The notes below the pieces were generated by a model. That model was not told the DNA's origin. It saw only the letters and a program-made list of their open reading frames with translations, and made no database searches. A stretch of 64,000 bases of DNA from Bryobacterales bacterium (GTDB lineage: Bacteria > Acidobacteriota > Terriglobia > Bryobacterales > UBA6623), in the NCBI GenBank assembly GCA_965248305.1, contig OZ252099.1, positions 1,009,981-1,073,980 of the forward strand, written 5' to 3'. Of the stretch, positions 25,897 to 44,687 are shown piece after piece. The stretch's first letter is position 1; each line of letters starts with the position of its first letter. The translations under genes and the position numbers were made by a program.

Positions 25897-25986
25897 AGGG
25901 CACACCAGGAGAAGACAGGCTCACCCCGACGCAGTTTCCATTTTAGGACGGTCCCCTTGCCCTGCCCAACAACGCGAATCAGGTTC

Positions 25987-26280
25987 TCACTCACGTACTT
26001 CCATCAGGTCGGTCACTTCGATGCCGACCAGCTGCCCATCCATCTCGATCAAAGCATCCGGCGGATCGTCCTGATTCCCTGCGGCGTCGAGGTTCGGCCT
26101 GATCTTACAGATTGAGTAACCATGCTTTTCCATTTCAAGAGCCCAGTCCTTGACTTTCTCGATTTCCGCCAGATCCTGGTATCCGTGAATGTTGTCGAAG
26201 TAGGGTGAATGCGGACGGCTCTTCTCTGCGATCCGTTTCATCTCCTCGAGGTCGTTGTCAGTCCATTCATCCTTCGGCAT
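25987..26280 (-). CDS. Hypothetical protein (97 aa)
   Basis: A strong RBS (GGGAGG) lies 5 nt upstream of the ATG, and the composition is acidic. The C-terminal PPDALIEMDGQLVGIEVT loosely resembles a PD-(D/E)xK core. I cannot assign a family. Confidence 0.45.
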   Translation of the reverse strand: MPKDEWTDNDLEEMKRIAEKSRPHSPYFDNIHGYQDLAEIEKVKDWALEMEKHGYSICKIRPNLDAAGNQDDPPDALIEMDGQLVGIEVTDLMEVRE

Positions 26281-26479
26281 TGCAACCTCCCATTATTCAT
26301 GCGGCGCAGGGCACGCGCGCTCGTACCGCCTTGCCCGGGTGCGGGGATTCTTCATCGCCATCTTGTTTCTCCCTTCACGACTAATGGTCTAGTTGACACA
26401 CGTTACCCGCGTGCCGTGCGGCCTCTCATGTGGACCGATAGAAGAATGTGGTGATCCCATTCGCAAGACCGGCCGTCAG

Positions 26480-26785
26480 TCAAGCTGACTCGTACCGCTC
26501 TACGACGATCTCATTTGCCCGAGCACGCATTTCCGAGGCGTCGTGCCAGGCCTGCATCCGCAGCAGCATGTCCATGCTGATATCGAATGCCTTCTCGATA
26601 CGCAGGGCCATCTCCGCCGACAGGGCCGCGTTGCCGTTCAGCAGGGCCGAGAGCGTCGCCCGGCGGACCCCGAGGATCTGGGCCGCCCTTGTTACGTTGA
26701 GACCCAATTCCTCGATGACCTCCGTGCGGATGAAGTCGCCCGGATGCGAAGGGGTCATGTTGACGTTGATGCCGTTAGTAGCCAT
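26480..26785 (-). CDS. higA: HigA-type antitoxin (XRE helix-turn-helix)
   Basis: Starting at the internal ATG gives MATNGINVNMTPSHPGDFIRTEVIEELGLNVTRAAQILGVRRATLSALLNGNAALSAEMALRIEKAF, the classical HigA/VapI pattern (HPGE.L.e..l.plgl....lA..lgv.r.tl...l.g...it..mAlrl). The start overlaps the HigB stop (TGATG). Confidence 0.8.
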   Translation of the reverse strand: MATNGINVNMTPSHPGDFIRTEVIEELGLNVTRAAQILGVRRATLSALLNGNAALSAEMALRIEKAFDISMDMLLRMQAWHDASEMRARANEIVVERYESA

Positions 26786-27039
26786 CAGTGGTAGTCCTCC
26801 AAATTCAAGCGGTCGATGTAACCGTCCTCTTCGGCAAACGTAATCCGCCAATTGCCGGAGACGGAAACGCTCCAGTCATCCTGCCGGTCACCGGCAATGA
26901 ACCCATCGATGTGTTCGGCAAGAATGAGTACCGTCAAGATTTTGCGCACCCGGTCGACGAGGTCCTGCCGCAGGAACCGGGGGTTGTCATCCTCGAGCAG
27001 ACAGCGCAATCCCCGGTGACGGACCGAGCGAACGATCAT
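26785..27039 (-). CDS. higB: HigB-type toxin (RelE/ParE superfamily, plasmid maintenance killer protein)
   Basis: 84-aa ORF beginning MIVRSVRHRGLRCLLEDDNPRFL and ending GDRQDDWSVSVSGNWRITFAEEDGYIDRLNLEDYH. It matches the HigB consensus (GDR.GqwSi.vn.nwRi.F....g....v.l.DYH) and lies upstream of the antitoxin, as is typical for higBA. Confidence 0.7.
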   Translation of the reverse strand: MIVRSVRHRGLRCLLEDDNPRFLRQDLVDRVRKILTVLILAEHIDGFIAGDRQDDWSVSVSGNWRITFAEEDGYIDRLNLEDYH

Positions 27040-27802
27040 GCCATAAGTGTACGGTATGACCGTTCGATTCGCAGGCCTTTTCTTGAAGGGCCATTGCCGA
27101 TCCCTTCCTCCGTCGCACGGGCATCCGTTCGTGGACGGGACGCGGGTCCATGCCGGCGAGTCGCGGCCACACCGGAGAGATGAATGGATCTGTTTGCCCG
27201 CAAGCCGTCACTGTCCCGGCCCGCCAAGCCGCCCCCTGCGGGGTACGGTACTGGCGAGATAGGGCGGCGGTTGTGGGAAGCCCGGGAGCATCTCGAACCG
27301 CCCGCAGCGGCTACGACTTCGGCCGATAAGAACGTTCATTGCACCTCCTGAAGGTAGTGGGCGCTACCTGTCCGCATCGTTCGAATCTGGTCCAAGAGCG
27401 GCTGCTCCCTGAGACCATAAGCTTCAATCAGTAACCGATCCAAGACTGACACAATCTCGCGGCCTTCTCGTCTACCGTTTCAGCACCCTTCTCGAGACAA
27501 GTAGCTTCGCCGTTCGTTCAATCTGGGCTCGCAGGGACTCATCCTTCCATCCGGCCGGTGGCTCGACAGTTGCTCATGGTTGGAGTTTTCGCTCCTCGTA
27601 CCAAGCATTCTACCTGCGCAGCAGATCGAGCGGCGGCCAATCCAGAGCCGCGCTGCCATCCCGCTTATTGCTCCTCTAGACATGGTCCTGCCTCACCGTG
27701 ACGGGCCGCTTCGACTGCGATCTCGCTGCGGGAATGACGGGAGCAGCTCGTCGACCCGGTTCCGCCGCAGCGGCTCCCATCCCTTGCGAACCGTCCGCGG
27801 CC

Positions 27803-28039
27803 TCAGCGCTTCGAGAGCTTGTCCAATGCGTTCGCGATCCGCTTGTAGTCCTTGGCGAGCTGTGAGTAGTCGGTCGCCAAGTCGTTCACATGCCCTTGCA
27901 ACTGCTCGACCTGCTCGCGCAAGGTCGTCACTTGCCCGGACAAGCCAGAGATCCGCCCGGCGGCACTCCTCTGCTCCCGTTCGTACTGCGCGGACAGCGA
28001 CCGCAAGGCCTCGCTCAAGTGCTTCTCTAACTCGGTCAT
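27803..28039 (-). CDS. MbeD/MobD-like mobilization protein, nested in another frame of the relaxase gene
   Basis: 78-aa coiled-coil ORF starting MTELEKHLSEALRSLSAQYEREQ, which is the characteristic MbeD/MobD N-terminus (MTELE.QLL.ALE.LQ..YE). Confidence 0.6.
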   Translation of the reverse strand: MTELEKHLSEALRSLSAQYEREQRSAAGRISGLSGQVTTLREQVEQLQGHVNDLATDYSQLAKDYKRIANALDKLSKR

Positions 28040-28048
28040 GCGCCCTCC

Positions 28049-28411
28049 TCACGGCAGCGACAGCTTGATCGCCGGCTGCTCTTCCACGGTCCAGACCGGC
28101 ACCGCCGCCCGGTCGTTGTGATCCAGCGTCCTGGATCCCGGCGGCAGGACGATGTACTTCCCGTTCGCCGCCTCGTGCAGCCGGATCCCCCAGGTTCCCG
28201 CGTTCAGCTGCTCCAGGACCCGCGTCCGCTCCTCGATCTCGAGGTCCAGCCGCTCCACTCTCTCGCTGCGGCTCCGGATCCGGCTCGACTGCCACTGCAC
28301 CAGTCCCCAGCTCCCGATCGAGATGAGCAGAAAGAGAGCGGTCCCGGCCGCCAGCGGGAGCAGCCACGACCACTTCAGGACCGATACCTGGCGATCGACC
28401 GCGTCCTCCAA
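28049..28411 (-). CDS. MbeB-like mobilization protein (membrane-anchored), nested in the relaxase gene; upstream part cut off by an in-frame TAG
   Basis: TM segment WSWLLPLAAGTALFLLISIGSWGLVQWQ followed by LEQLNAGTWGIRLHEAANGKYIVLPPG, as in ColE1 MbeB. The same frame upstream (LSERLRKRREEEEKRIEAERQRYEALITSGFKKLGASASSAVDNA) is separated from it by a TAG at 28430-28432. Confidence 0.45.
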   Translation of the reverse strand: MEDAVDRQVSVLKWSWLLPLAAGTALFLLISIGSWGLVQWQSSRIRSRSERVERLDLEIEERTRVLEQLNAGTWGIRLHEAANGKYIVLPPGSRTLDHNDRAAVPVWTVEEQPAIKLSLP

Positions 28412-29104
28412 AGCGCTCTCGATGGAACGCTACGCGTTGTCGACGGCGCTGCTCGCACTCGCGCCAAGCTTCTTGAACCCGCTCGTGATCAGGGCCTCGT
28501 AGCGCTGTCGCTCCGCCTCGATCCGTTTCTCCTCCTCCTCGCGCCTCTTCCGCAGTCGCTCGCTCAAGCTGCCCGGCGTCGAAGTCCCTGCCATAGATCG
28601 CTCCTTTCAGCCGCCACCGCTGCCCGCTCTGCGGATCCCGCGCCGTGACGTAGTCCCGGCCCTGCCGCGGCACCTCGAGGCCGGCCTCCTCCAGCGCCGC
28701 CACCAGGTCCTCGCGGTTGCGGATCTCGCCGGCCTCGACGCGCTGCTCGAGGTAGGCCCCGAGCAGCTGGCGCGAGTCCGGCTCGACCTCGAGTCCGGCC
28801 CGCAGCTGCGCCGCGTCGATGTAGGCCTTGTAGGGCCCCGGCTGCAGCGCCCGCGCGCTCTCCGGATCGTCCGGGCGGCTCCAGCCGTGCTCGTGGTTGA
28901 GCGCGTCGCGCAGCGGGTCGAAGGCCTTCTGCCAGCCCGGCGGCGCGATGTTCAGGCTCTTGCCCGTCTCGAGGTCGCAGCGCGCGGCCAGGACGTGGAC
29001 ATGCACCCCGCCGCCCCGCTCGCGGTGCAGCACGGCCGACACCATCGCACACAGTTGCTCCGATGTAGCATCTGGTGCAACTTCAACTGTCCACCGCTTC
29101 GTAG

Positions 29105-29570
29105 CCACTTCACCCGGCGATCGCCCAGATCCACGGCATCGAGTCCTGGCGGGGGCGGCCGTTCCTGGTCGTCGAGTTCCTCTCCGGGGGCACGCTCCAG
29201 GACCGGCTGCTGCAGGGGCCGGTCCCGCCGGCCGAGGCCGTTTCCGTGATCGCCGCGCTGGCCGACGCGCTGGCGGCGCTGCACGAGCAGGGATTCCTGC
29301 ACGGGGACATCAAGCCGAGCAGCATCGGATTCACGTCGAGCGGGTCGCCGAAACTGCTGGACTTCGGCTTGGCCCGCTCGAAGGGCGGCGCGGCCACCGC
29401 GGGCGGCACGCTGCGCTATGTGTCGCCCGAGGCGTTGGCGGGCCGTCAGGCGGGCGAAGCCGACGACGTCTGGTCCCTGTGCGTCGTCCTGTACGAGACG
29501 GTGGCCGGGCGGCAGGCGTTCGCGGGCGGCAGCGCGGACGAGGTGGCCGGGCGGGGCGTTCGCCGAGGCG
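29105..29570 (+). pseudogene. Ser/Thr protein kinase catalytic-domain fragment (subdomains IV-IX only)
   Basis: HPAIAQIHG...PFLVVEFLSGGTLQDRL...LHEQGFLHGDIKPSSIGF...KLLDFGLAR...GTLRYVSPEAL...DVWSLCVVLYETVAG. The Gly-loop and VAIK lysine region are missing. The open frame begins directly after a stop at 29102-29104, at the relaxase truncation point. Confidence 0.7.
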
Positions 29571-30509
29571 CTTCGCGGGGTCCGCTGGAAGGAATAGGAA
29601 TTTTTTCGGTCTTCTTGTCTGGTTTTCGTTTCCCGGTCGTCTCAGGGGCGGTAGCGAGTCAAATTGTGACATTGCTCCGTCGGCAACTGAACGAGCCAGG
29701 ACATGATCAGAACAGGACACACAGCCACACAGCCACACCGGCAGACCGCCACACCAGTACAGCTAACGCACCTATCCAGTAACGAGCCACCCCACGCGGC
29801 CAACCGTCGCGCGTCCCGCCTGTCGGCGGGGACGGCGCTGCCGCTGTGGATCGAGCGGAGTCCGGCGCGGGCGCGAGCCACGTCGGCGGCGCCTGGCTGC
29901 ACCGCCCCGCCCTCCGCTCCGGGATCTGCCGGTTACCCGGCGGGATCCATTCCGAGATGGCGTTCGCCGCCGATGATCCGAAGCTACGCGATGCGCGCTG
30001 CTTCGCCAGCCCCACCCCGCTCCCCAGGGAAAAGCCCCCGGCGCCCAAGGCGCAAATGATTCGCGAGCTAACTTGACGCCTCGCAGCGTCTGCGCGTGTC
30101 CCCGCGGCAAGTCCGCGCCGAGGGCCAGACGACGCACGCAAACGGTGACGGTGCCGCGCTGCCAGCGCCAGGGAGAGACGGGAGCGGCAGCGCTCGACTC
30201 CATCAAGCGAGAGCAATTCCAGGGAAGCCACTTCGCCCGATTCCGAATCGGCGCTGGCTCCTTCGTGGTCAGCGCGGAGCACCCGTTCCTCATCGAGCAC
30301 TCGCGCACCCGTGACGAGAGGCAGCTCGGCGGCACGATCGCCGCTGCTCGGAACGGATGGAGCCGCGATGCAACATCTGCCACCGGGTTCGGCCCGGACC
30401 GGGCGGCTGGCAGTCTCCGCAGCGGCAGTCCGTGGGAGAGAGCGCGAGCCCGGGCCCCCTAGCGCTCGCGAGCGAAACCGCCCCGGACGCCTGAGGGCGG
30501 AACGAAGCG

Positions 30510-31088
30510 GTGGCAGACGGGCCGCATCGCGCCGCCACATACCGGTTCGTCGCTCCTAGGAGCGCCAGCCTTGCGGGCCGCTTTCCGCTCCCGCGCTCCC
30601 GCGCTACCATCCCGCCAGTGGACACAGCACCCCCGAAGGGCCCCCCCCCTGCCGAGGAGTGGGCGTCGATCACCCACCGCTTCAGCGTCGGCGGGCACAT
30701 TGGCTACATCTCGGTTGCGGCCGACGAGCACGGCCGTCCCGTCCTCATCGAGGTGCGCATGTCGAAGGCCGGCGGCCTGCTGCGAGGGCTGCTGGATTCG
30801 CTCGCCGCCAGCGTCACGCTTGGGCTGCAGCGCGGCGTTCCGCTGTCGGACTACGTCTCCCTGCTCTCGCTGGCGCGCTTCGAGCCCGCCGGCTGGACCG
30901 AGCGCATGGGCTACGCGCACTCCGTCGTGGACTACCTGCTCCGCTGGCTCGGCGCGAAGTTCCCCGGAACCGGGGCCGTCGATCCGCCCACCGCTGTTCC
31001 GGACGGAGAGACTTGCGGAGTGTGCGGCACGCCCGTCACCTTGGGTCCCGGCTCGCCCTGTCCGGACTGCGGGGACATCGGGCTCTGA
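30510..31088 (+). CDS. Stand-alone TSCPD-domain protein with C-terminal zinc ribbon
   Basis: ITHRFSVGGHIGYISVAADEHGRPVLIEVRMSKAGGLLRGLLDSLAASVTLGLQRGVPLSDYVSLLSLARFEPAGWT...AHSVVDYLLRWL matches the TSCPD domain found at the C-terminus of class II ribonucleotide reductases. The tail is CGVCGTPVTLGPGSPCPDCG. Confidence 0.65.
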   Translation: MADGPHRAATYRFVAPRSASLAGRFPLPRSRATIPPVDTAPPKGPPPAEEWASITHRFSVGGHIGYISVAADEHGRPVLIEVRMSKAGGLLRGLLDSLAASVTLGLQRGVPLSDYVSLLSLARFEPAGWTERMGYAHSVVDYLLRWLGAKFPGTGAVDPPTAVPDGETCGVCGTPVTLGPGSPCPDCGDIGL

Positions 31089-31133
31089 GGTACAGCCCCC
31101 CGCCTCTCGACACGCCGCGCCTCCCGCGTCAAA

Positions 31134-31475
31134 TTGAAAGGTATGGGAAACGATCAGGGCGCCCCTTCCCTCGCAGGCAGCTGGGCGCTGGAGTGGATGC
31201 CGGCTGAGACGCTCGAGGAGGGCCTGGAGGCGCGCGAGATCCTCGCGCGCGGCCGCCCGGCCGGCCTGATGGTCCACAAGCGCGCATCCGACCGGAAGCG
31301 GAACGTCCTGCTCGGGCCGATTGGTGCGGCGCTGGGATCGCCGCCGGGATGGCTCGACGATCTAGACCCAAGCGTAGCGATCAATACGATTCTCACGGCA
31401 ACGGCGCTGCTGCCGCCGGAGGACCTCGAGGAGGCGCTCTCTGCCTGGGACGGCTTGGATGTGGCCGACGAGTGA
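31134..31475 (+). CDS. Hypothetical protein (113 aa)
   Basis: ORF with GC3-rich codons; no recognisable motif. Confidence 0.3.
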   Translation: MKGMGNDQGAPSLAGSWALEWMPAETLEEGLEAREILARGRPAGLMVHKRASDRKRNVLLGPIGAALGSPPGWLDDLDPSVAINTILTATALLPPEDLEEALSAWDGLDVADE

Positions 31476-31690
31476 CTGCTTTGGGAAATCGTGCCGAATG
31501 GAAACTGGAGGTCCATATGCGACAAACGCCTAATCTGTATCCGATGAATGGAGGAGCCCCTGGACCGGGGCTGCTACTGCCGTCACCGGCGACGCTCCCC
31601 CGTTGCTGCCGGGCACCGCGCGGTCCCGGGTGCCACCCTCTTTCCGGCGCGTCAGCACCCCCTTGTGGGTACCGTATCCAAATCGATCCT

Positions 31691-31922
31691 TTAGGGGTCG
31701 TCACCGCCGGCCCCCAGCAGGCGCTCCAAGGCCGAGTGGGTCGGGCCGTCCAGCCTGTTCGTCCCGGAGTAGGTGGGTGTACACGCCACGCGCGCTCTCG
31801 CTGCCGTGCTTCCACACACTGGCCGCATCCTCGACCCAGATATGCACGATGTGCTCGGCGCTCAGGTTGCGCGATCCGAAGCGGGCCAGGCAGAAGTCGC
31901 GTACGCTACGGAACGTTGTCAT
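31691..31922 (-). pseudogene. Small (~77 codon) gene of unknown function, paralog 1, frameshifted
   Basis: MTTFRSVRDFCLARFGSRNLSAEHIVHIWVEDAASV... then switches frame to ...YSGTNRLDGPTHSALERLLGAGGDDP. Length is 232 nt (1 mod 3). Homologous to 32537-32771. Confidence 0.4.
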
Positions 31923-31926
31923 GCTT

Positions 31927-32486
31927 CTAGATTCGCACCTTCGTCACGAAAACGATCCTTTTCACACGAGGCCAGCGAGCGAGCCGCCTAGTGACTTCGC
32001 CCCCCTCCCCCTTGCCGAGCCGCAAGACCCTCCGTGCACTATCGGAAGAACCGCCCTCGCAGCGCGCCTCGGCCTTCACCTCGCGCATGAGTGACGCAGC
32101 GCTCTCGAAGCACCTGGTTGTCTCCGCTCCCCCCTCATAGGTCGGTTTTGGAGGGGCGCCGCGCCCAGTGGCGAAGACCAAGCACCCGGTTACTCGCATC
32201 CCCGGCGCCCAATCCCGGACGGCCTCGACGTTGCGTGCGATTCGCCGCAAGGTCTCTCGGAACTTTGGGCTGGGAACGCGCCCATGCTTCGTTTCGATGA
32301 CCCATAGCCCGCGCGGCATCGCCACAAGATGGTCGATGTCCCCACCCTGGCGATCCCCTCCGCATGGTGCGCCACCGCGCACCGTTCTAGGGTCAGCGCG
32401 TATTCGATCGCCTGTCCGGCCTTCTCCTCGCCGCGCGTGCCCTTCCTCATGTCCGGGAACCGCCAGCCGCTCGCGAGCTGGTGCAA
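31927..32486 (-). pseudogene. NERD-domain (nuclease-related) protein, frameshifted
   Basis: One frame holds GTRGEEKAGQAIEYALTLE. The next frame holds DIDHLVAMPRGLWVIETKHGRV, the NERD core motif DIDHlv....G.wviE.K. Confidence 0.55.
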
Positions 32487-32536
32487 CGCCGCGCCTAGGT
32501 GGCGAAGGTGGATTAGGCCGTCGCGAAAACGATCCT

Positions 32537-32771
32537 TCAGGCGCCGTCGGCGTCAGCCAGCAACAGGCGCTCCAGGGCCGAGTGGGTCAGGCCGTCCAGC
32601 TTGTTCATCCCGGAATAGGTGAGTGTGAATGCCACGCGCACGCCCTCACTGCCGTCCGGGCACACGCTGGCCGCATCCTCGACCCAGATGTCCACGATGT
32701 CCGTGTCACTCAGGTTCCGTGCTCCGAAAAGGCCCAGGCAAGAAGCCGCGCAAGCTGCGGAACTTTGTCAT
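32537..32771 (-). pseudogene. Small gene of unknown function, paralog 2, frameshifted at a different position
   Basis: MTKFRSLRGFLPGPF... stops early, and the next frame continues LSDTDIVDIWVEDAASVCPDGSEGVRVAFTLTYSGMNKLDGLTHSALERLLLADADGA. Length is 235 nt (1 mod 3). Confidence 0.4.
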
Positions 32772-33122
32772 GTCTCCAGATTCGCACATCGGCTCGCTCG
32801 GTACCGGCGCAGCACGCGGCCTGGCCCGAGACGCTGGCCCTGCTGGTGCATTTCGGGTGTTGGGCGGAATGCTCGCGCTGCTGCGTTATGCCCCGGATTC
32901 GGAGACCGGCGGGGTGGTGTTCATGGCCCTGATGTTGGCCGCCGCCCTCGCCGCGCTCGCGGCTGCCGACAAGGGCCTGTGGGGCAGCCGGTAAAACGAC
33001 CGTTTTCGCGACGGGGGATGGGGGGGTGTTTGTTACGTCCCACGCCGGGCGGGCTTTATCGCACTCAACGGCGGCCTCGCTGGCCCCCGGCGATCATTGA
33101 ATGCCTGCTGTGGTTGGCGCGC

Positions 33123-34006
33123 CTACCCCTCGGCACTAACGGCCATTGCAACGTTGCGCCATGATCCGTCCGGCGCGGGCCAGCTCCGGATCAGCTCGAA
33201 GCGCAGCTCCGCTCTAGCTCCCTCGCCGTCAACGGTTAGGCTCACCTCGATTTCGGACACGAGCGCCGACACCATCCAGTCCGGCTCCAAGGGATTCACT
33301 AACCACTTGGCTCTAAGGGCGCTCCGCGTCAGCAACGAGCTACATTCCGCGTCGCCCCCTCCGAGCCCGACGCGGACGGGAATATCCTCGGTCCTTTCCC
33401 CGCCTACAAGCGCCGCGCAGAATGCTCCCAAGCCCCCCTCGGCCGCGGTAACGAGCTTCCGGCTCGCTTCCTCGGCCTCTCGCTTGGCATCCGGGTGCAT
33501 CCGGAAGTCTAGGCTGGCCGCTAGCTGCTCCCCGTCCCAGAGTCGATCCGGCACGCGGAGAACCAGACGCCCGACCAGTGACGATCGACATGCTGCGCCA
33601 CGCAAGCCTCCGCGAACTCGTCTCGCGAGCCTTGTTCGTCCCGCTTGGTGATTTGCGCGATTCCGCCATCGAGGCCGAAGCCGACCTCGATCTTTCGGCG
33701 CTTGTCCGAGGAGATCTTACGCAACCGATCAAACCGCAATCCCGGCAACCCCAAGACGCGATCGTCGAGCAACCGAGTCCCACGCTTGTTCTGGTCTCCA
33801 AGTACGGTCTTCCGCAGGAACACCGAACTGGTCCGCGCGAATGCGGCCACGGAATTGCGCCAATCGTTTTGATCGCACGCGCTGGACGACCGACTCCGCA
33901 GTCCGTCGGTGGCGAGCTGTAGGTCGGTCATTGCATCCGTGATTCGCGCCGTCTTCTCCTTCAATATGCCGCCAACCACGCTACCCGTCGCGGGCAGGAG
34001 TGTCAC
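33123..34006 (-). pseudogene. Hypothetical gene, apparently split by a frameshift (ORFs 33521-34006 and 33123-33605)
   Basis: Two same-strand ORFs overlap by ~85 nt, and both have coding-like GC3. I recognise no family. Confidence 0.3.
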
Positions 34007-34304
34007 GGCCGCCTTTCCAGGGCCGTTTCCTCGAATGCCCAGGGGCTAGCACGTCAACCGCGAAGTCCACATCGACACCGACCGAACGCAACAGAAACAT
34101 GCCCTCAGCATCGGTTCGTTCGAAGTTGTCAAATGCCGCCCGCCGAAATGCCTTGCCAGGCTCGTGATATCGAACCTGGCTTGTGGCGCTATATGAGTCG
34201 TGTTGAACGTGGCTACTTGCCTTTCCTGTTTTTCTTGGTGATATGGTAGACAGGCTTCCATGCCGAAGATATTGCGCCGAGCGCCCAAAACGCGGCACCT
34301 GCAA
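33981..34304 (-). pseudogene. Fragment of a carboxypeptidase-regulatory-like domain protein (paralog of 40926-41504)
   Basis: YHEPGKAFRRAAFDNFERTDAEGMFLLRSVGVDVDFAVDVLA aligns with YYEPDKPIRRTAFNNFERTDADGLFLLQAVGIDVEFVVDVLA of the 192-aa ORF. Confidence 0.45.
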
Positions 34305-36524: not shown

Positions 36525-36592
36525 GTAAGCGTTCAGATGGCGAGGCGGAGGTCGGCTGAGCCGATGTTGGGGATGCCCGAGGAGGCGGGCAT

Positions 36593-37516
36593 CTAGCGGG
36601 AGCGCGCAGGGCGTGTTGGTCCGAGCAGGACCGTCTGCCAGTCCCGCTGCAGCGGATACACGAAGACCGCCTTGGGCGTCTTCGCTGGCGCCGTGCCCCA
36701 GGCACCGCGCGCCTGGGTCTGTCCCAGATAGTGCCAGTTCGAGGCCCGGTAGCAGGTTCCCTTGTGCTGGTCGCTGACATAGGTTTCGACCAGCACGGGC
36801 AGCACGCCATGGACGCGCTGCCAGTCCGCGGCCAGCTGGCGCAAGCTCAGCCCCAGGACCTTTGACGCCAGGCATGGCACGCGCACCCAGGGAAACAGCA
36901 GGAAACGGGCTTGCCGCACAACCCGCTCCAGCGGCCGGTGGGGCTGGTCCTGCCAGCCGATCCAGCGGTCCCGCACCGCCAGGTAGCGGGCGGCGAAGTC
37001 GTACAACAGGCAGCCCAGCAGGCGCCCCTGACGGTCTTCGAGGAAGTAGCGCAGGTGGGAGCCGATGGGCTGGCGATAGCCCAGTGGATGGTAGCGTGCG
37101 AGGAATTCGTTCCCCAGGGCGGCCTCATCGCGGCCGCTGACGAGCCGCAAGCGCAGCGGCTCGAGCTGTGGCAGGGGGCCGTCGAGCGGGGCTTGGGGCG
37201 CACTGCGCTCGCCCAGCGAGAGGGGCCCTTGGCGGCCCCGTCCGGGGCCTTGGCGGGCGGGCAGGGCCAGGAGCGAGAGCCGTTCGAGTTCCTCCAGCAG
37301 ACGCAGCGCCAGTTGGATGCGGTTGCTGCCACGAGGGGTCTGCCACCGCAGGTGCTCGCAGACGGTGTGGCCCAGTTCGGTGCGGCTCAGCAGGGGCAAG
37401 CTGGTGACGATCTCCTGGATGTCCGCAATCTGGCTCCGTCGCAGGCGGTGGCCGCAGAAGGCGGTCGAGGCCAGCCGCACGATGCGCGGGTCCAGCGCGG
37501 CGGCGGAACGGGCCAT
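36593..37516 (-). CDS. DUF4338-domain protein (DruA-like)
   Basis: 307-aa ORF with the N-terminal pattern LSRTELGHTVCEHLRWQTPRGSNRIQLALRLLEELERLSLLALP. The C-terminal pattern is FLARYHPLGYRQPIGSHLRYFL...RDRWIGW...RFLLFPWVRVPCLASKVLGL...DWQRVHGVLPVLVETYV...GTCYRASNWHYLGQTQARG. I recognise both as DUF4338, but this was not verified by HMM search. The ATG follows the transposase stop directly (TGAATG). Confidence 0.7.
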   Translation of the reverse strand: MARSAAALDPRIVRLASTAFCGHRLRRSQIADIQEIVTSLPLLSRTELGHTVCEHLRWQTPRGSNRIQLALRLLEELERLSLLALPARQGPGRGRQGPLSLGERSAPQAPLDGPLPQLEPLRLRLVSGRDEAALGNEFLARYHPLGYRQPIGSHLRYFLEDRQGRLLGCLLYDFAARYLAVRDRWIGWQDQPHRPLERVVRQARFLLFPWVRVPCLASKVLGLSLRQLAADWQRVHGVLPVLVETYVSDQHKGTCYRASNWHYLGQTQARGAWGTAPAKTPKAVFVYPLQRDWQTVLLGPTRPARSR

Positions 37517-39306
37517 TCAGGCCGCCTTGTCCAGCTCGGTGTCCCCGCTGCTGGCGCCAGACGGGATCCAGTCCACCGGGGCCTTGCTGAGTTGTTCCCG
37601 ACGCTGCTCGCTCAGGCGCCACGGCAGCCAGGGATCGAGCTGTTGCGGGGCCTTGTTGCCATGGCGGGCACAGGCCGCCAGCCAGTCCAGCATCCAGGTA
37701 TACGGGTTCAGGCCCGCCAGGCGCACGGTCGCGAGTACGCCGAACAGCAGACCCGCCGCTCGCGCACCGTCCGGCCCGCCCGAGCCGAAGCTGGTGTAGC
37801 GGGCGATGACCGGCCCCCGCAGAACCCGCTCCGACAAATTGTTGTCGAGCGGGATGCGCGGGTCCGCCACGAAGCGGCTCAGCGATTCCCGGTGACTCAG
37901 CAAGGCCCCCAAGGCCCGTCCTTGCGCATCCACACGGGCCAACTCGGCACCGTGCTGGCTGCGGCCTTGGCCCACCTGGTCGAGCAGAATCCAGTCGAGC
38001 TTGCGATCCCCGCCCTCTTCCCGGGCGCGCTCGAACAACTCTTCCACTCGCGCTTGCAACTGCTGCTGGAGCGCCTGGAACGCCCCGCTTTGCCGCTCCA
38101 GCGGTTGCTGCGGAGCCCACTGCTGGAGCCGCTGTCGGTTCAGCTGGAACAATGCGCCGATGCGCTCGACCCACTCCTGTGCCCACGCCTTGAGTTCCGG
38201 GTGACCGGTGCCGGCCCGCACGAAATTGCGGCGGATATGCACCCAGCAATGGGAGAGCACCACCAGGTTCGGAAACTGCTTGGCAAAGGCCTTGTACGTG
38301 CTGTAGCAGTCACACACCAGCACGATCAACCCGCCCTGGCCGACCAACGAATCGAGCAATTGCCGGGCGGAGTCCAGGCCCCGGGTCGGCAGGATCCGCA
38401 TGCGGACCGTGTCGCCGGCCAGACAGGCCCACAGCCAGAACTTCGGCTTGGGTCGCCCGCGGGGAGGCGGGTCCTTGTTGTCGTCCTCGCTCGGGGCCAG
38501 CCACTGCACTGGCCAGGAGGTCTCGTCGGCCTGGGCCACCGGCTGCTGCTGTGGATACTCTCCGATCGCCGCAGCCCCGTTGACAGCGTCGACTGCGGCA
38601 CGCGCAGCCCCAGTGCCGCCAGATCCCGGGCGACCGCCGCCTGCGGACGGAACAGCGCGTAGACCTGCACCAGACACCCGGCCCACACACTGGTGCCCAA
38701 CTGGCTGGTGCCCAGCCGGGGAGCCGGCGGGGCGCTCACCGGCCGGGCTGAGCAACAGTCGCAGTCCGGACCATAGCGCTGGCGCACCACCTTGCGCACC
38801 AGCGCGTTCCAGACCAGCTCGTACAACCAGCTGATCTTGTGCCCGCACGGCACGTAGGCGGTGCCGCAGTCCGGACAGCGGCGCTCCTGCTCGGGCACGT
38901 CCAGCCACTCGAACACCACGGGCAGGTCGGGCCGCTGCTCGCGCGGCGGGGTCGGCGAACCCGGTTCCCGCCCGCGCTTCCTGCGCGGCCGGACCGCCGG
39001 ATCCTTGCTCGCGGCCGGATCCGGCGCGGGCGTTTCCCCGGCCGCTGTCTCGGCGGCCGACGGGTCGGCAGCGACTGTCGCCGTGGCGGACGGGTCGTCC
39101 CCGCCCGCTGGCGTGGCCTCGCTCTTGCGTCCGAACAGCGACCGTTGCAGGTTCGCCAGCTGGGCTTGCAGCCCAGCCTCCCGTTCCTGCGCAGCCTGCA
39201 AGTCGGACTGTGCAGCGTCGAGTGCGCGTTGGAGTTGCTCGCAGCGAGCGCACGCGGGCTGCCCCCCGACTGGCTGTCCTTTCTTGCTGGACTTCGTCCT
39301 GCCCAT
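37517..39306 (-). pseudogene. IS66-family transposase, needs a -1 frame change near 38565-38572
   Basis: The N-terminal frame has MGRTKSS...coiled coil...CPDCGTAYVPCG (zinc finger). The C-terminal frame has ADETSWPVQ..., VCDCYSTYKAF, LSHCWVHIRRNF (IS66 CWAH.RR.F motif) and DNNLSERVLRGPVIAR. The total is 1790 nt (2 mod 3). Confidence 0.8.
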
Positions 39307-39817
39307 AACGACCGGGCTGACCGCCCGATCCTACGATGGCAAGGTTGCCGAGGCAAAGTCAAGTGCGCAGCCGATATTTTCTTGCTTGCCCATCGAGCCC
39401 TGCCCGACGCCATCCACCCGCTCCACCGACGCCGACCGGTTGCTCCTCCGGCTGCCCCGGAACTCCTTGCCTCAGCGTTGCGGTTGCCGACGAAATCCGG
39501 TTCGCCTGCCTCTGCGCTACTCTCGTGGTTCTGCGGCAGAGCCTAACTGTAGCGCCCCGAAACCTGAATGCTTACGCTCTCTGTACCAGTCCCTCGCTTC
39601 TATTGCTCTCGCATTCAACTCGTCTGTTGGATCAAACAGGCCGATCCAATAGCAACTATCCACGAAAATCCTATTCATTGCAATTCTTCGCGTTTCCTGC
39701 TTGATCGGACGGAGTCCAGTTGCTATTTGCCACGAGAGCCTTGACCTTAAATTCTTGAGAATGCCCCGCGAGGCCCAGAATCAAACCCTGACGTCGGACT
39801 ACGCGCTCGCTCAACGC

Positions 39818-40831
39818 TCAGACAGCGACTTGGGTGCTCGTCGCAGTCGCAGTCGACTCATCCTGCGACATGATTAGTTGCATGGCTGCTTCCCTAAGGG
39901 CTTCCGGGACGTCACGATCGGCTTTCGCGAGTAACAGGCACTCTACGGTCCTAACAGAACCACGACGAACAGCATCGACCAAGATCGTCTCGCCCCAGTG
40001 CCGATCCATAAAGTCGGTCGTCGCGCCACTGTTCAGTAATGCATTCGCGGTCTCGACATGACCCCGCACGGCCGCTTGCTGCAGTGCTGTCCAATGCAGC
40101 TTGCGGTCTTCGCAATCGATAGAGGACCCTCCCTGTAACAGCGCTTTAACAGTCCGAACGTTGTTCCGGATGGCAGCCTCCTGTAAAGCTGTTCGTCCAG
40201 ACCGCTTGTTCGCTATGTCAGCGTCGGCACCGTGATCTAGCAGGGTCACAACGACCTCCGCGTGATCTCGGATGGCAGCCTCGTGCAGGGCAGTATCGCC
40301 CCAGTCCTCATCCAAGGCGTTGACGTTAGCCGTTGCCACTAGCATTTGGACGACTTCTAAGTGACCATGGCGGGATGCCAGTTGGAGTGGCGGTTTGCCC
40401 CATGTCTGTTCCGTCAAGTTGGCATCAGCTCCAGCGTCCAAGAGCAACCTGACGATCGAGGCGTATCCCCGCTGTGAGGCCAACAGCAATGGTGTCGCGC
40501 CATTCGCGTCGACGGTGTTTACAGAAGCTTCATGCTTCAAGAGCACTTGCGCGACATCCTGGTGGCCTTCCCATGCGGCCAGGTGGAGGGCTGCCAAACC
40601 AGTAGGCCCACGAAGGTCGGGCAGAACGCTATCAAGTACGGCCTCAACGATTCTTGGATGCCCGTTACGAGCGGCGAGATGCAGTGGTGTCCAGCCGTCA
40701 TTGTCCGGGACGGAGTAATCGGCCCCCTTTCGGACTTGGGCCACGAATGTTGCAGCATCCCCCGCCGCCGCTGCCCGGAAAATGGAATCATGTGATTGAT
40801 TGATGCCGTCGGTATCGGTATGTTGCATCAT
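39818..40831 (-). CDS. Ankyrin-repeat protein (about nine repeats)
   Basis: 337-aa ORF with repeated 33-aa units of the form G.TPLH.AA..GH..vv..LL..GAd.n (DGWTPLHLAARNGHPRIVEAVL, TGLAALHLAAWEGHQDVAQVLLKHEASVN, NGATPLLLASQRGYASIVRLLLDAGADAN and others). Confidence 0.85.
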   Translation of the reverse strand: MMQHTDTDGINQSHDSIFRAAAAGDAATFVAQVRKGADYSVPDNDGWTPLHLAARNGHPRIVEAVLDSVLPDLRGPTGLAALHLAAWEGHQDVAQVLLKHEASVNTVDANGATPLLLASQRGYASIVRLLLDAGADANLTEQTWGKPPLQLASRHGHLEVVQMLVATANVNALDEDWGDTALHEAAIRDHAEVVVTLLDHGADADIANKRSGRTALQEAAIRNNVRTVKALLQGGSSIDCEDRKLHWTALQQAAVRGHVETANALLNSGATTDFMDRHWGETILVDAVRRGSVRTVECLLLAKADRDVPEALREAAMQLIMSQDESTATATSTQVAV

Positions 40832-40925
40832 TTCTCAACGCTTACATTATATGGATGGTTCGATACTCTGTTCGTTTTCCGCAATGCTGGTTTCCTTCTT
40901 GATTTCGCCGTCCTGTGTGTACACG

Positions 40926-41504
40926 CTAAACCTGATGCGACCGGGCGGCACCCTGGTAAACAGGACATTGCCGAAAACCCGAAGTGTCCGCTCGCTGGTT
41001 GTACACACGGCCGTGTAGCAACGAACCGCGTTCGTCGGCGGTGTAACCGGCTGGATCTGCCGATAGGTGTACCCTGACTCCGCCAATGAGAGCCCCTGAC
41101 GAATCAAGTACTTGCACATGAGCGGTTCCACCGCGGCGGTCAAGGACGATATCGTCTAGTAGCGTGTCTTCCGCCGCTCGCTTGAACCTCTTGGAAGACT
41201 TCGGCAAGTATTCGTCAGCTAGCACGTCAACTACGAACTCCACGTCAATACCCACCGCCTGTAATAGAAACAAACCATCGGCATCGGTTCGTTCAAAGTT
41301 GTTGAATGCTGTCCGACGAATGGGCTTGTCCGGTTCGTAATAGCGAACCTGGACCAGCGCGTCCGCGATCCCGTTCCCTTCTTCATCAACGACTTTGCCC
41401 TTCAAGTACTGACCTTGAGGCAGCGCGAAGTTGATCACCACCGGACCGGTGGTCCCCGCGGCGATGTAATGTTCGTCCGGTGGGCGCTGGTCAGATTCCG
41501 CCAT
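40926..41504 (-). CDS. Carboxypeptidase-regulatory-like (beta-sandwich) domain protein
   Basis: 192-aa ORF. GKVVDEEGNGIADALVQVRYYE...FERTDADGLFLLQAVG is typical of CarboxypepD_reg/Cna-B-like folds. IS copy A sits 3 nt upstream of its ATG. Confidence 0.5.
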   Translation of the reverse strand: MAESDQRPPDEHYIAAGTTGPVVINFALPQGQYLKGKVVDEEGNGIADALVQVRYYEPDKPIRRTAFNNFERTDADGLFLLQAVGIDVEFVVDVLADEYLPKSSKRFKRAAEDTLLDDIVLDRRGGTAHVQVLDSSGALIGGVRVHLSADPAGYTADERGSLLHGRVYNQRADTSGFRQCPVYQGAARSHQV

Positions 41505-41507
41505 GAT

Positions 41508-44097
41508 CAGACTTCGTTACACCGTTTCATTTGGTTTGGATAGTTTGGATGCAGGGAGCGGCGGCTTGGGGTTGGCCGGGGTGGGCTGGGAGGAGGCTGA
41601 GCAGGGCAGGTCGTCCGACAGCATGCGGTACACCAAACGGAGTTGGGTGCCGGGGAAGACGGTGCGCGTGCGGTTGAGCTCGTCGAGCAAGGGGGCCAGG
41701 GCGCGATCCTGGGCGCGGGTCGGCTGGTGCAGCAGGCGCACGGTGAGGGTCCCGGCTGACTCGTCAGGGTGCAGGCTGGCGTCAGCCTGAAACAGCGACT
41801 TGAGCAGGCTGCGGGCGGTGTCGGGATTGTCGAGCGCGGGCGCAACCGCGGTCGTCATCGCTGTTTCGGCGCGGTAGGCCAGCATGCGCAGGGTGTCTAG
41901 CAGTAGGCGCAGCGGTTGGGGCAGGGCCTGCAGCCGTGCCTCCGGCGAGAGCTCGCCGGCCAAGATGTGCTGGTCGGTCACCTTGCGTGCCAGCAGCAGG
42001 CCTTGGATGGTCTGGTCGCAAGTCTGGATGCGCGCTTCCAGCGCGCGCGCTGGGGCGGATCCGGCGTCGGCTTGCAGGGCCAGCTTGCGGCGCAGGTTGC
42101 CGACCGAGTTGCGGGCTTGCTTGAGCGCCTTGCCGATGGTGCGGCAGGCCGGGTTGACGACCCAGGCGTCGGCCTCGACCTCCACCAGGGCATGCTCGGG
42201 CAGGGTGTCGAGGCCGAACTCGGCGCGCAGATACTTGAAGAAGTTCTCCTGCGTCCAGCGCGAGCGCAGCAGGCCCGCCGCTTGCTCGGCCGTGAGGTCG
42301 GGATGCGTGGTCAGCAGCGCGGGCTGGCGCTGGTCCGGCCCCGGCCGACCCGCCAGCTCGAGCGGCTTGCGCGGCTGGCCGCGCTGGCCCGTGCCGCGCA
42401 CACGGCGGTCGATCCAGAAGCGGATCTCGCGCGCCTGGCAGCCTGCGCCCAGATCGTACGGTCGCTCGGCCAGCTGGCCCTCCAGGCGGGCCGACCCGCC
42501 CGGGGCGCGCACTGGGATGACGGCCTCCCGGAAGTCGCTATCCGGCCAGCGCTGCGCCTGCGAGCCCTTGATCCAAGTCACCACCGCGATGCCCAGCGCG
42601 CGCAGCTCGCGGAACAGGCGCGGGCTCCAGCCCTCGCGGTCGAAGACCAGCGTCAGGCGTGGTGCGCCAGCGCCTGCCAGCAGGCCCAGCTGGCGCAACT
42701 GCGGCACAATCCCGTTCCAGATCTCAGACACCATGCCGGCGTCTATCTGGCGGTGCAAGCACAGCAGCGGCGCCCCGCCCAGCGCGTGCACCCAGTAGCC
42801 GACCGAGGCCGGCAGGGCCAGCTTCTGGCGGGTCACGAAATGTTTCGGCAGCCGGCCCTGACCGCTGTAGACCTGCACGTGGCCATCGACGAACAGCGTG
42901 GCGACGGCCTCCGGATCGTCTGCACACCAGTCCTGGGTCAGGCAGCCGACCCAGGCCGGCAGCCCCTTGGCAGCGGCCAGCTGGTGCGTGCGGCGGCGCA
43001 GGGTGCGCGGGCAGGGGCAGCGGTCCAGGCCCAACAGGGCGCCCCACTCGCCGGGCTGCTGGTAGCGCAGCCGCTCGGCGCAACGCACCCGGCCCAGCAG
43101 CAGGAAGGCCCACAGCAGCAGCAGCGACTGCAGGCCGTAGAAGCCCTTGGGTAGCGTCAGCTGGTCGAGGTGGCGCAGCAGGCCGGCCTGCAGCAGGCTC
43201 GGCAGGGCGGTCAGCACGCCGCCCCCGCTGACGGCCGCGGCGGCGGCGAAGCGCGGGGCGCGCCCGTCGAGCGCCCCCAGGCTGGCCGCTACGCGGCCCG
43301 CCGTGTCGTGCGCCGCGCGGCCGCGCGGGGCGGCGGCGTCACGCCGGTTGCGGTCTTCCTTGCCGGGGGCCGCCGACGGCGGCGCACTGGGCGCCGCGCC
43401 GCCGGGCTGCGGGCCCGCTCCCTGAGCGTCACTGTCACGCTCGGCGGGCGCGCCGGCGCGGCGCCGTGGCAGGCACTGGCTGGCCGGTAGCAAGCCCTGT
43501 TGGGTGTAGCGCCACAGCGTCGATTGCGAGACGCCCAGTTGCTGGGCCACGCGGTACAGGCTGAGCCCGGACCGCAGCATGCGGGCGGCCTGGGCCAGCT
43601 GCGCGGGGTCCACGATGCCATCGGGGCGGCGCGGCTTGGGGGCGGGCGCGAAGCCAAGCTCACCCTGCACCTGCAGCCGCTGCACGGCGCGCGAGACGGT
43701 GCTCTGGCTGATGCCGTGGGCGCGGGCCAGTTCGGACTGCGTAGCGAGGCCGAACAGGGCGAAGCGGGCCAGGCAGAGATTGCGCTCTAGCTTGTGGTCG
43801 GCCGTGTGCGAGCAGACGGGGTCGGTGTGCACGAAGTAGACGACGCGGTCGCCCTCGCGCAGCATGCTGAGGCGCGCGCTGATGGGCGTGGCGTGCGGGG
43901 GTTGGAGCGGCAGAGCGGCGGGCAGGCCAGTGGGCGCGGGCAGTTTGGCGGGCGAATACATATGCATTCAAAATAGCATGTTCTGGGGCGCAAGTCAAGT
44001 CCGGATGCGGCCGGGGAGGGAGCGTGAAAGCTTGACCCAGCAGCTAGTTACGAGGCTCTAGGCCTCTTTGCAGAGAGTTCCGATGTAACGAAGTCTG
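41508..44097 (-). mobile_element. Insertion sequence, copy A (2590 bp, intact), unclassified DDE element
   Basis: Perfect 14-bp terminal inverted repeats CAGACTTCGTTACA (41508-41521, and the reverse complement of 44084-44097). The 5-bp direct duplication ATGAT lies at 41503-41507 and 44098-44102. Confidence 0.9.
41517..43967 (-). CDS. IS transposase (816 aa) with two N-terminal HTH motifs and an IS4/IS1380-superfamily-like catalytic signature
   Basis: HTH-like ARAHGISQSTVSRAVQRL and LYRVAQQLGVSQSTLWRYTQQG. Candidate DDE positions are ATLFVDGHVQVYSG and TLVFDREGWS, plus RSRWTQENFFKYLRAEFGLDTLP (an RW.iEn.fk.lK-type motif). The family call is inference. Confidence 0.8.
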   Translation of the reverse strand: MHMYSPAKLPAPTGLPAALPLQPPHATPISARLSMLREGDRVVYFVHTDPVCSHTADHKLERNLCLARFALFGLATQSELARAHGISQSTVSRAVQRLQVQGELGFAPAPKPRRPDGIVDPAQLAQAARMLRSGLSLYRVAQQLGVSQSTLWRYTQQGLLPASQCLPRRRAGAPAERDSDAQGAGPQPGGAAPSAPPSAAPGKEDRNRRDAAAPRGRAAHDTAGRVAASLGALDGRAPRFAAAAAVSGGGVLTALPSLLQAGLLRHLDQLTLPKGFYGLQSLLLLWAFLLLGRVRCAERLRYQQPGEWGALLGLDRCPCPRTLRRRTHQLAAAKGLPAWVGCLTQDWCADDPEAVATLFVDGHVQVYSGQGRLPKHFVTRQKLALPASVGYWVHALGGAPLLCLHRQIDAGMVSEIWNGIVPQLRQLGLLAGAGAPRLTLVFDREGWSPRLFRELRALGIAVVTWIKGSQAQRWPDSDFREAVIPVRAPGGSARLEGQLAERPYDLGAGCQAREIRFWIDRRVRGTGQRGQPRKPLELAGRPGPDQRQPALLTTHPDLTAEQAAGLLRSRWTQENFFKYLRAEFGLDTLPEHALVEVEADAWVVNPACRTIGKALKQARNSVGNLRRKLALQADAGSAPARALEARIQTCDQTIQGLLLARKVTDQHILAGELSPEARLQALPQPLRLLLDTLRMLAYRAETAMTTAVAPALDNPDTARSLLKSLFQADASLHPDESAGTLTVRLLHQPTRAQDRALAPLLDELNRTRTVFPGTQLRLVYRMLSDDLPCSASSQPTPANPKPPLPASKLSKPNETV

Positions 44098-44687
44098 ATG
44101 ATCAGGATGCCACCCTGGTTCTCAACTTAATCTTGAAATCGCCCTCCTTTTCGACTTCGACATGGTGTGTGGTAGACGTGATGTTCATAGGAGTTGTGAA
44201 GTCCACGATAATATTGCTGACCGGCTGACCCAACAATCGGAACCACCTCCGTCCGTGCCGGGAAATTGAGGGCGGCGCAGTTTCCTTATACGATGTCTGG
44301 AATGGCGACCACGAAACCGGAGGGTTGGTAGATCCCAGGTACGCCGCGCAGGCTGGTTCATGGCCATCGTCGTAGCATATCCGTCACACTGCGCGGTCAC
44401 CATCACAGGCCTTTCTTGGTGCCTAATCTTTCCTTCGCCATCAGAGCGTGCCATGGACGAGAAGATTCATAGCCTGTTCGTCAAACGAATGGAGTTGATA
44501 TTGGATAAGCGGAAGAACGATGCTGCGGTCGCAGCAATGCAGGTGCGTATAGCAAGGCCAACAAACACTCATGAACGGCGCGCCGCTCACCCCGACGCCA
44601 TGAAACACGAGATCCCCAAAGTTGAAATCTGCTGTGCCCGCCGTGCGAAGCTTGTGCCTTAAGCGAAAGAGGCTCCCGCATGATGTT

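Follow-up and report, generated by a model that had tools for sequence, protein, structure and literature searches.

A strain-variable island of plasmid-like and transposon content splits one copy of a tandemly duplicated Uma2 gene in a Bryobacterales bacterium

Introduction

The described systems closest to the locus reported here are illegitimate capture of DNA or plasmid integration, by non-homologous end joining (NHEJ) or through microhomology; integrative mobilisable elements (IMEs) and genomic islands; nested accumulations of insertion sequences (ISs), or "IS graveyards", together with composite transposons; and the ColE1-type mobilisation region (mbeA with nested mbeB and mbeD). We compared with these an island of ~16–19 kb of DNA, plasmid-like and transposon-like in content, that splits one copy of a Uma2 gene (hereafter Uma2′) in a 64,000-nucleotide stretch of a Bryobacterales bacterium (GenBank assembly GCA_965248305.1, contig OZ252099.1, positions 1,009,981 to 1,073,980). 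This whole stretch is referred to as the window, and coordinates count from its first base.

As in illegitimate capture, the island shows no target site duplication (TSD), 0–4 nt of filler or loss, an end within a gene and no recombinase, and microhomology-mediated rearrangements likewise lie nearby; it differs in being large (at least 12 kb in its smallest complete version) and heavily remodelled, and the event would have to be read back from sequence. With IMEs and genomic islands it shares a Mob relaxase-type gene, an MbeD-like gene, HigBA, an interrupted chromosomal gene and strain-variable content, but it has no integrase, no att repeats at its junctions and no tRNA or conserved-gene 3′ end as target, its relaxase is truncated and one of its ends is a broken gene. 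Because a search for an integrase, an att core and natural termini found none of them, the island is not an integrative and conjugative element (ICE) or IME. IS graveyards resemble it in its IS1595, its IS66-family element with a DruA gene and its two IS copies with a PF21804 transposase (copies A and B), the simple insertions among these each having their own TSD; here, however, the outermost insert is not an IS, and copies A and B do not bracket the island. The likeness to the ColE1-type region lies in an MbeA-like alignment and a nested MbeD_MobD open reading frame (ORF), whereas the N-terminus of the relaxase is gone and the putative mbeB-like ORF has no family match.

We are highly confident that the locus records a single old insertion, made in unit 1 of a tandem duplicate and remodelled afterwards. 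The insertion itself was probably a single illegitimate, end-joining-type capture of a mobilisable-plasmid-like DNA fragment, followed by IS insertions, segment replacement and deletions, a reading that we hold with moderate confidence.

Uma2′ is interrupted at a single clean site

Two fragments of Uma2′ flank the island, and an intact copy of the gene lies further to the right:

25469–25896, minus strand: 3′ half of Uma2′ (joined alignment)
25897–25900: left junction filler, AGGG in the window and AAAC in sister-strain loci L082 and L091
44671–44687, minus strand: 17-nt piece of Uma2′, bounded by the island on the left and IS copy B on the right; the final 5 nt are a copy of the IS copy B TSD
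47153–47815, minus strand: Y′, the 5′ half of Uma2′ (to ~47604) and its upstream region, up to the tandem duplication junction (BLAST, PF05685)
49229–50038, minus strand: intact Uma2

Self-BLAST of the window matched 25614–25896 to 49289–49572 (87% identity) and 47151–47815 to 49585–50251 (93.6%). For a global alignment, 25400–25896, NN, 44671–44687 and 47158–47900 were joined and set against 49150–50330. The joined fragments were colinear with the intact copy, the sole unaccounted bases being the 2 nt GC at 49573–49574, and the insertion point reads ...CCTTCCA/(GC)/GGCTCCC.... With GC restored, the minus strand translates into a 297-aa Uma2 protein with 0 stops and 0 frameshifts. Given so exact a fit over >1.1 kb of 87–94% homology, chance is dismissed as the cause of the join. 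A preliminary description of the window had proposed that the fragments are complementary with at most 2–3 nt unaccounted for and that both lie on the minus strand in the correct order. The colinear alignment bears this out, and relative to the intact copy the halves show neither overlap nor a gap beyond 2 nt, either of which that description had named as grounds for rejecting a single gene. Its right bound of the island, 44670, also holds, while its left bound, 25897, is here refined to 25901, positions 25897–25900 being ambiguous and strain-variable; the island proper thus spans 25901–44670, with 0–4 nt of filler at the left.

The profile score assigns the gene to the Uma2 family (PF05685, PD-(D/E)XK nuclease), with 70.5 bits for the intact copy and 52.4 bits for the 5′ fragment against a cutoff of 27 bits. 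By itself the 3′ fragment does not match PF05685, as expected of a part that encodes the C-terminal coiled coil. The number of repeats in this coiled coil differs between the two paralogues (25469–25700 vs 49229–49380).

Sister-strain contigs (~99.5% identical) were reached through 100% matches of the split Uma2 fragments; these and other related loci are cited by L numbers. The left junction is found in L082, L084, L088, L090, L091, L101–L103, L107 and L113 and the right junction in L081, L096, L097 and L098. These assemblies are independent and stem from at least six other samples, the L113 scaffold coming from a different project. Such recurrence of both junctions excludes misassembly, and the chimeric assembly that the preliminary description had raised against itself falls away; nor did the sister-strain contigs contain the two independently truncated paralogues that it had also envisaged. 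An artefact, in which long-read assembly made a chimera or two Uma2 paralogues were truncated independently and happen to seem complementary, is an a priori possibility and no more; some assembly noise is evident from frameshift-type differences between assemblies. With junctions reproduced to the base by many assemblies that are independent and stem from different samples, one of them from another project, and with fragments that abut within 2 nt and restore one open reading frame, we give this explanation a negligible probability. At the right junction (44663–44672), L081 carries an extra AG (GAAAGAGAGG vs GAAAGAGG). This micro-variation, as well as AGGG/AAAC at the left, may reflect either noise in long-read assembly or a real process, slippage or conversion.

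The interrupted gene lies in one unit of a tandem duplication

The preliminary description missed that a tandem duplication is present, with the intact copy in the neighbouring unit. The layout is X′ (23906–25896), island, Y′ (47151–47815), X (47811–49572), Y (49573–50251), with the following features beside those listed above:

23906–25896: unit 1 (X′), with MFS 3′ end, creatininase pseudogene and 3′ half of Uma2′
47811–50251: unit 2 (X–Y), with MFS 3′ fragment, intact creatininase and the intact Uma2
47821–48204, plus strand: MFS 3′ fragment of unit 2
48189–49037, plus strand: intact creatininase of unit 2

The 2.44-kb unit comprises the MFS 3′ end, the creatininase and Uma2. Self-BLAST aligned 23906–25896 with 47811–49572 at 87–92% identity, and the Y-to-X junction of the duplication (47811–47815) shows ACTGT microhomology. 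With the units diverged by 6–13%, the duplication is old. In unit 1, the creatininase (24440–25288; PF02633) carries an in-frame Trp-to-stop change near 24515 (YQHHT-stop-QELGE) and several further changes at otherwise conserved positions. Given this nonsense codon and the split Uma2′, unit 1 as a whole is decaying.

Scanning GTDB genomes with the creatininase revealed MFS–creatininase synteny in 80 Bryobacterales/Terriglobia loci, yet Uma2 followed the creatininase in none of them (0/80), and a few carried distant Uma2 homologues (40–50% identity) elsewhere in the flank. The synteny identifies the window as a Bryobacterales chromosome, and species-level relatives are no source of an empty site. 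A third creatininase–Uma2 copy was found on another contig (L095, 9267–11233; ~90–92%, called diverged), with an uninterrupted Uma2 and the same Y-to-X junction, flanked by MR_MLE and SBP_bac_5/IS66 genes; in view of these different flanks, the duplicated unit has been relocated at least once. This Uma2 is not callable as the orthologous empty site, the three-way comparison being star-like (23, 15 and 22 unique substitutions). The ratio of nonsynonymous to synonymous substitution rates (dN/dS) is ~1.2 in the Uma2 nuclease domain and ~1 on all three branches (the window copies and L095), which suggests neutral or diversifying evolution of the whole small Uma2 clade. With dN/dS ~1 on every branch, the decay of Uma2′ is uninformative for dating the insertion.

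Structural variants among sister strains

Sister strains carry the junctions of the insertion, which predates their divergence, and five structural versions occur among these ~99.5% identical strains. The parts of the locus that vary between them are:

29113–36086: segment K, strain-variable, with Pkinase, TSCPD, NERD and CarboxypepD-like fragments and IS1595
41508–44097, minus strand: IS copy A, with an 816-aa PF21804 (Transposase_29) transposase and the terminal inverted repeat CAGACTTCGTTAC
44688–47152, minus strand: IS copy B, with its TSD ATGTT at 44683–44687 and 47153–47157

Segment K is confirmed in L107, and in L088 and L096 (one contig) and several other loci it is replaced by a 3.19-kb segment, N, with DUF3800 and HicAB-like genes. 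L082, L084 and L091 keep the left junction and 25897–29116 and then jump to 47542, an 18.4-kb deletion (29117–47541) at the microhomology CACCCG; this short island was rejected as an ancestral form, as it is without 400 bp of Uma2′ that the window keeps. Additional insertions are present in L081, L101, L102/L103 and L108, those in L081 and L101 being IS-encoded.

IS copy A is absent from L081, L096 and L098, and IS copy B from L081, L096, L097 and L098. In L081 and L096 the CarboxypepD_reg-like gene is contiguous with its 570-bp upstream region, the two that copy A separates in the window. Copy A is flanked by the 5-bp TSD ATGAT (41503–41507 and 44098–44102), and copy B is 99.9% identical to it except that 125 bp have been lost from its interior between CACGCCG repeats, with a frameshift in the transposase as the result. 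The ends, CAGACTTCGTTAC and GTAACGAAGTCTG, are 13-bp inverted repeats and the transposase matches PF21804 with 285 bits, as befits an insertion sequence, while a match to the NCBIfam IS701 model lies far below cutoff. IS copy B is a separate event, later than the insertion of the island. It sits within Uma2′, at a distance of 12 bp from the island. The targets of copy B (CGCATGATGTT) and copy A (CGCCATGAT) are alike, both being of the type ...ATGAT/ATCAT, and a preference for such targets would be a sufficient explanation for the proximity of copy B to the junction. We rejected a composite transposon (copy A to copy B) or a cointegrate, since each copy has its own TSD (ATGAT vs ATGTT) and none pairs across. 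A further PF21804 IS copy lies in L083 at the equivalent of window position 48019, where synteny breaks, and the IS also occurs in the L092 and L095 loci. The preliminary description took everything between the Uma2′ halves to be one or more nested insertions into a single gene, and this is borne out: copies A and B and IS1595 have their own TSDs, and A and B are missing from sister strains that share the right junction. The comparison of strains also allows the late events to be put in order.

That description had also looked to related genomes and metagenomes for the empty site and for the island elsewhere. Sister strains supplied the junctions and the variants, and no uninterrupted allele. 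The full-length reconstructed Uma2′ had no match above 80% in a collection of 5.8 billion proteins (best full-length matches, 78–80%), and patterns for the uninterrupted site had no match in two JGI metagenome scans.

The island ends show a broken gene and no recombinase signature

The outermost parts of the island are, on the left, a segment shared with many other loci and, on the right, non-coding DNA:

25901–29112, minus strand: segment S1, with the broken gene, HigA, HigB, the Mob relaxase remnant and nested ORFs
25902–26280, minus strand: N-terminal 126 codons of a ~260-aa gene, frameshifted
26483–26785, minus strand: HigA (HTH_3, 38.5 bits)
26788–27075, minus strand: HigB (PF05015, 19.5 bits)
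44103–44670: right end of the island, the non-coding region upstream of the CarboxypepD_reg-like gene

Segment S1 has the same left junction in at least 10 related assemblies, and homology to other copies of the module begins at 25901. The ORF at 25990–26280 is the start of a 256-aa protein (L094 copy as reference), whose residues 1–126 match 26280–25902 and whose residues 127–256 have no counterpart in the window or in a complete N-type island. The full-length form (~260 aa) is the natural one, as ~45 homologues of 240–280 aa cover 93–100% of the protein. In L086, L087, L093 and L094, homology to the window runs from 27234 down to 25901, beyond which the sequence differs. The left end of the island thus cuts a conserved ~260-aa gene at codon ~127. 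The other half of this gene is absent from the right end, so that the interrupted gene does not continue at the opposite end as natural termini would have it, and this argues against a transposon terminus and against a circle opened at attP there. Campbell-type integration, whether homologous or through an attP within the 256-aa gene, is rejected because the C-terminal half is nowhere in the island.

At the outer junctions, no TSD was found in the window or in the junction strings of related strains, no terminal inverted repeat is present at the island ends (the best inverted alignment is at background level), and no att core occurs at both junctions, which share at most GG/AG. A 6-bp TSD masked by synonymous changes (CAAGGG vs AAGAGG) was rejected, with 3/6 positions identical and a strain-variable left copy. 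The outer inverted repeats and TSD of a transposon or composite transposon are hence lacking, whereas the junctions have the form expected of end joining, with no duplication and 0 to a few nt of microhomology, loss or filler. Among island ORFs of at least 70 aa there is no integrase or recombinase domain (Phage_integrase, Resolvase, Recombinase, rve; not every fragment was scanned in six frames), gene calls of the N-type, L081 and L082 versions contain no recombinase apart from IS transposases, and none of the five island versions has one. Nor did 23000–51000 match any Rfam element, such as a group II intron. The preliminary description had seen no integrase, terminal inverted repeats or target duplication, in agreement with our ORF searches, end alignments and junction strings. 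It had left the mechanism unexplained; the lack of a recombinase stands, but the broken gene at the left end points to illegitimate recombination, which largely answers that question.

Scanning the ends for att-like repeats, as the same description had suggested, yielded a 14-nt repeat near them and none at the junctions. The direct repeat GCTCACCCCGACGC lies at 25919–25932 and 44585–44598, 22 nt and 72 nt inside the island ends; comparison of the 150-nt ends gave an exact match this long in 0/2000 shuffles, while the gapped local score was not significant. Neither the rest of the window nor any non-orthologous position in ~2 Mb of related loci contains a further copy. We rejected the repeat as an att core, since both copies lie away from the junctions and other loci have the left one within the module.

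These observations bear on whether the island could be the remnant of a site-specific integrative (mobilisable) element, which a recombinase of the tyrosine or serine type would have inserted at a short core within Uma2′ and which internal replacements and deletions would later have deprived of its recombinase gene. Junctions without TSD are as expected for such an element, Mob and toxin–antitoxin functions are typical of integrative mobilisable elements, the HigBA and TSCPD modules adjoin an integrase, resolvases and ParA in L087 and L094, and the island interior has demonstrably been exchanged; the unexplained 14-nt repeat near both ends could be counted here as well. We nevertheless consider this origin unlikely: a left end in mid-gene whose other half is not at the right end means that no circle was opened at attP there, the junctions share no core beyond GG/AG, the 14-mer is off the junctions with a left copy that is module-internal elsewhere, and a recombinase is present in 0/5 island versions.

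Next to the broken gene, a HigB-like (RelE-fold) gene lies directly upstream of an HTH-XRE gene with a stop/start overlap, a predicted type II toxin–antitoxin pair HigBA, although the window HigB ORF scores 19.5 bits against a PF05015 cutoff of 27; PF05015 is recorded for 96-aa calls in sister loci. At least 19 contigs of Bryobacterales assemblies (32 index blocks) encode an identical 101-aa HigA, in unrelated surroundings: by rimP-nusA-infB, inside an integrase/resolvase/ParA element, by RepA_C, and by PIN/Phd. Homology breakpoints around the HigBA core (26337–27234) recur at 27234 and 26337 (loci L085–L094). The identical HigA in at least 19 unrelated contexts, together with these recurring breakpoints, marks the HigBA cassette as highly promiscuous.

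A Mob relaxase remnant and the breakpoint at 29112

The remainder of segment S1 consists of:

27693–29108, minus strand: Mob (MbeA-like) relaxase remnant (NF047848)
27803–28039, minus strand: nested MbeD-like ORF (MbeD_MobD, above the Pfam cutoff)
28049–28411, minus strand: nested 120-aa ORF, no family match

The relaxase ORF aligns to NF047848 (MbeA) with 47.9 bits (E=1e-12; NCBIfam cutoff, 500 bits), starting at profile position 97. About 96 N-terminal residues are missing, the catalytic-tyrosine region included, and this N-terminal region is absent in every strain compared. A MOB(HEN)/MbeA-type relaxase is marked by an N-terminal catalytic-tyrosine region, the HEN/histidine triad and a score above cutoff; with no such N-terminal region and a score far below cutoff, the ORF resembles and descends from a Mob relaxase but is a remnant and does not count as an MbeA-family member. 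Its likeness is to relaxases of small mobilisable plasmids, and it matches 3108 PLSDB plasmids, 2983 of which are mobilizable. No oriT was identified. All main components of the preliminary content list were verified; its mbeB-like ORF is without family match and its HigB is below the Pfam cutoff.

As is established for TrwC-type relaxases, no TSD arises when a relaxase mediates integration. A conjugatively transferred plasmid strand could thus have been integrated by a relaxase into an oriT-like sequence in Uma2′, leaving behind a relaxase remnant, an MbeD-like gene and junctions without TSD, all of which the island has. This is highly improbable, as the island ends lie neither by the relaxase gene nor by a recognisable oriT, the left end falls inside an unrelated gene, the relaxase is N-terminally truncated in every strain, and no nic-like sequence is common to the Uma2′ target and the island ends.

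Position 29112 at the edge of S1 is a breakpoint in three configurations, namely K, N and the L082 deletion. A 25-nt motif, CAACTGTCCACC[G/A]CTTCGTAGCCAC (in the region 29084–29112; also written CAACTGTCCACCGCTTCGTAGCCAC and CAACTGTCCACCNCTTCGTAGCCAC), lies 4 nt inside this breakpoint and is found again in L085/L089 (10451–10475), where it coincides exactly with the boundary of the HigBA module and is inverted with respect to HigBA. Across ~2 Mb of related loci, no unit was bracketed by the motif on both sides. A transposon-like or single-strand (rolling-circle or one-ended) element, for example a unit ending at 29108–29112 whose imprecise or one-ended termination made the left junction, would account for the recurrent breakpoint and for the inverted motif at the module boundary, and HUH-type elements have neither TSD nor inverted repeats; the adjoining ORF is HUH-relaxase-like. 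Yet the motif is 3.2 kb away from the Uma2′ junction and has no two-ended copy in those loci, the ORF aligns to MbeA from position 97 and is without the catalytic-tyrosine region, no IS91, IS200 or Y1/Y2 transposase is present in the island, and the right junction lies 15 kb off in unrelated DNA, all of which makes such an element quite unlikely.

Interior of the island

From the end of segment S1 to IS copy A, the window contains:

29105–29782, plus strand: Pkinase fragment (profile match)
30495–31088, plus strand: TSCPD (profile match)
31672–31938 and 32518–32787: 270-bp direct repeat (self-BLAST)
31930–32586, minus strand: NERD fragment (profile match)
33984–34313, minus strand: CarboxypepD-like fragment
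34419–35816: IS1595, with 8-bp TSD AAATCGTT
36087–39575, minus strand: IS66-family element with 437-bp inverted arms (36089–36525 and 39143–39575)
36593–37516, minus strand: DruA/DUF4338, inside the IS66-family element
37517–39253, minus strand: IS66 transposase, inside the IS66-family element
39818–40831, minus strand: ankyrin-repeat protein gene (Pfam Ank, E=9e-56)
40926–41504, minus strand: CarboxypepD_reg-like gene, with IS copy A directly upstream of its start codon

No matching target duplication was found for the IS66-DruA element in either strain type. DruA/DUF4338 ORFs are paired or fused with three transposase types (IS66 DDE, DDE_Tnp_1 and Tn5-like), the loci being 36593–39253 in the window, 12040–14271 in L094 and 720–3062 in L101. 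Exact-protein look-ups for the window transposase, the ankyrin protein, the 97-aa ORF and P0005 returned no record. Outside the island, 13000–15000 has a GC content of 0.73–0.75 vs a background of ~0.63, and 14306–14800 is ~85% identical to L092 7599–8093, which adjoins a RepA_C gene.

Discussion

Taken as an illegitimate capture, the locus would have the following history. Long ago, a 2.44-kb segment (MFS 3′ end, creatininase and Uma2) would have been tandemly duplicated via ACTGT microhomology, leaving a first unit that was redundant and decaying. A double-strand break or a replication template switch in Uma2′ may then have captured a linear, foreign, mobilisable-plasmid-like fragment through end joining that was non-homologous or mediated by microhomology; the fragment would have ended in the ~260-aa gene by the HigBA/Mob remnant on one side and upstream of the CarboxypepD_reg-like gene on the other. 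The joining would have added a few filler nt and cost 0–2 nt of target, with no duplication. Because the locus was already dead, further events could have accumulated at no cost: the IS66-DruA element, IS1595 and the exchange of 29113–36086 between strains, and, latest, the two PF21804 IS copies, one in the island and one 12 bp away in Uma2′. Other strains would have acquired further IS insertions and the 18.4-kb microhomology deletion.

We favour illegitimate capture because of the broken gene at the left end, the lack of a duplication, the 3–4 variable filler nt, the lack of inverted repeats and the two microhomology junctions nearby; the L082 deletion at CACCCG and the duplication junction at ACTGT indicate that illegitimate recombination has been active at this locus. 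The Mob, MbeD and HigBA content suggests a mobilisable-plasmid-like donor. By way of context rather than as a test, conventional NHEJ is reported to be enriched in Acidobacteria and in large GC-rich genomes (PMC7719229).

Several points weigh against capture by end joining. NHEJ would require Ku and LigD, or another end-joining system, in the host, of whose genome 64 kb were covered. The left end alone lies in a gene, the right end being intergenic and without a second context found for comparison. A recombinase may have come in with the original insert and been deleted afterwards, and the interior has clearly been replaced at least once. The 14-nt repeat GCTCACCCCGACGC is not explained by capture, and the recurrent breakpoint at 29112 with its 25-nt motif hints that at least part of the island has element-like ends. 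Neither an uninterrupted Uma2′ allele nor a donor locus was found in the protein collection and the JGI scans. The 29112 breakpoint, the inverted motif elsewhere and the identical HigBA in at least 19 contexts might also reflect a so far unrecognised recombinase-independent or relaxase-derived movement of the toxin–antitoxin/Mob cassette in Bryobacterales, perhaps responsible for its delivery into Uma2′ as well, a doubtful proposition to which we assign a low probability.

As a structure, the island is an ordinary example of illegitimate integration and IS accumulation in a pseudogene and represents no new system; the promiscuity of the HigBA cassette, the hot spot at 29112 and the DruA–transposase pairings are more novel than the island itself. 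What the locus offers is a population-resolved case, in an uncultured soil acidobacterium, of a redundant tandem duplicate serving as a neutral landing pad. If our favoured reading is right, it shows that a large segment of foreign DNA can enter a bacterial chromosome with neither integrase nor transposase, and that it is then remodelled fast, with five structural versions at ~99.5% strain identity. Its exact junctions and series of variants are of value for studying horizontal gene acquisition by illegitimate recombination in large, GC-rich, slow-growing soil bacteria.

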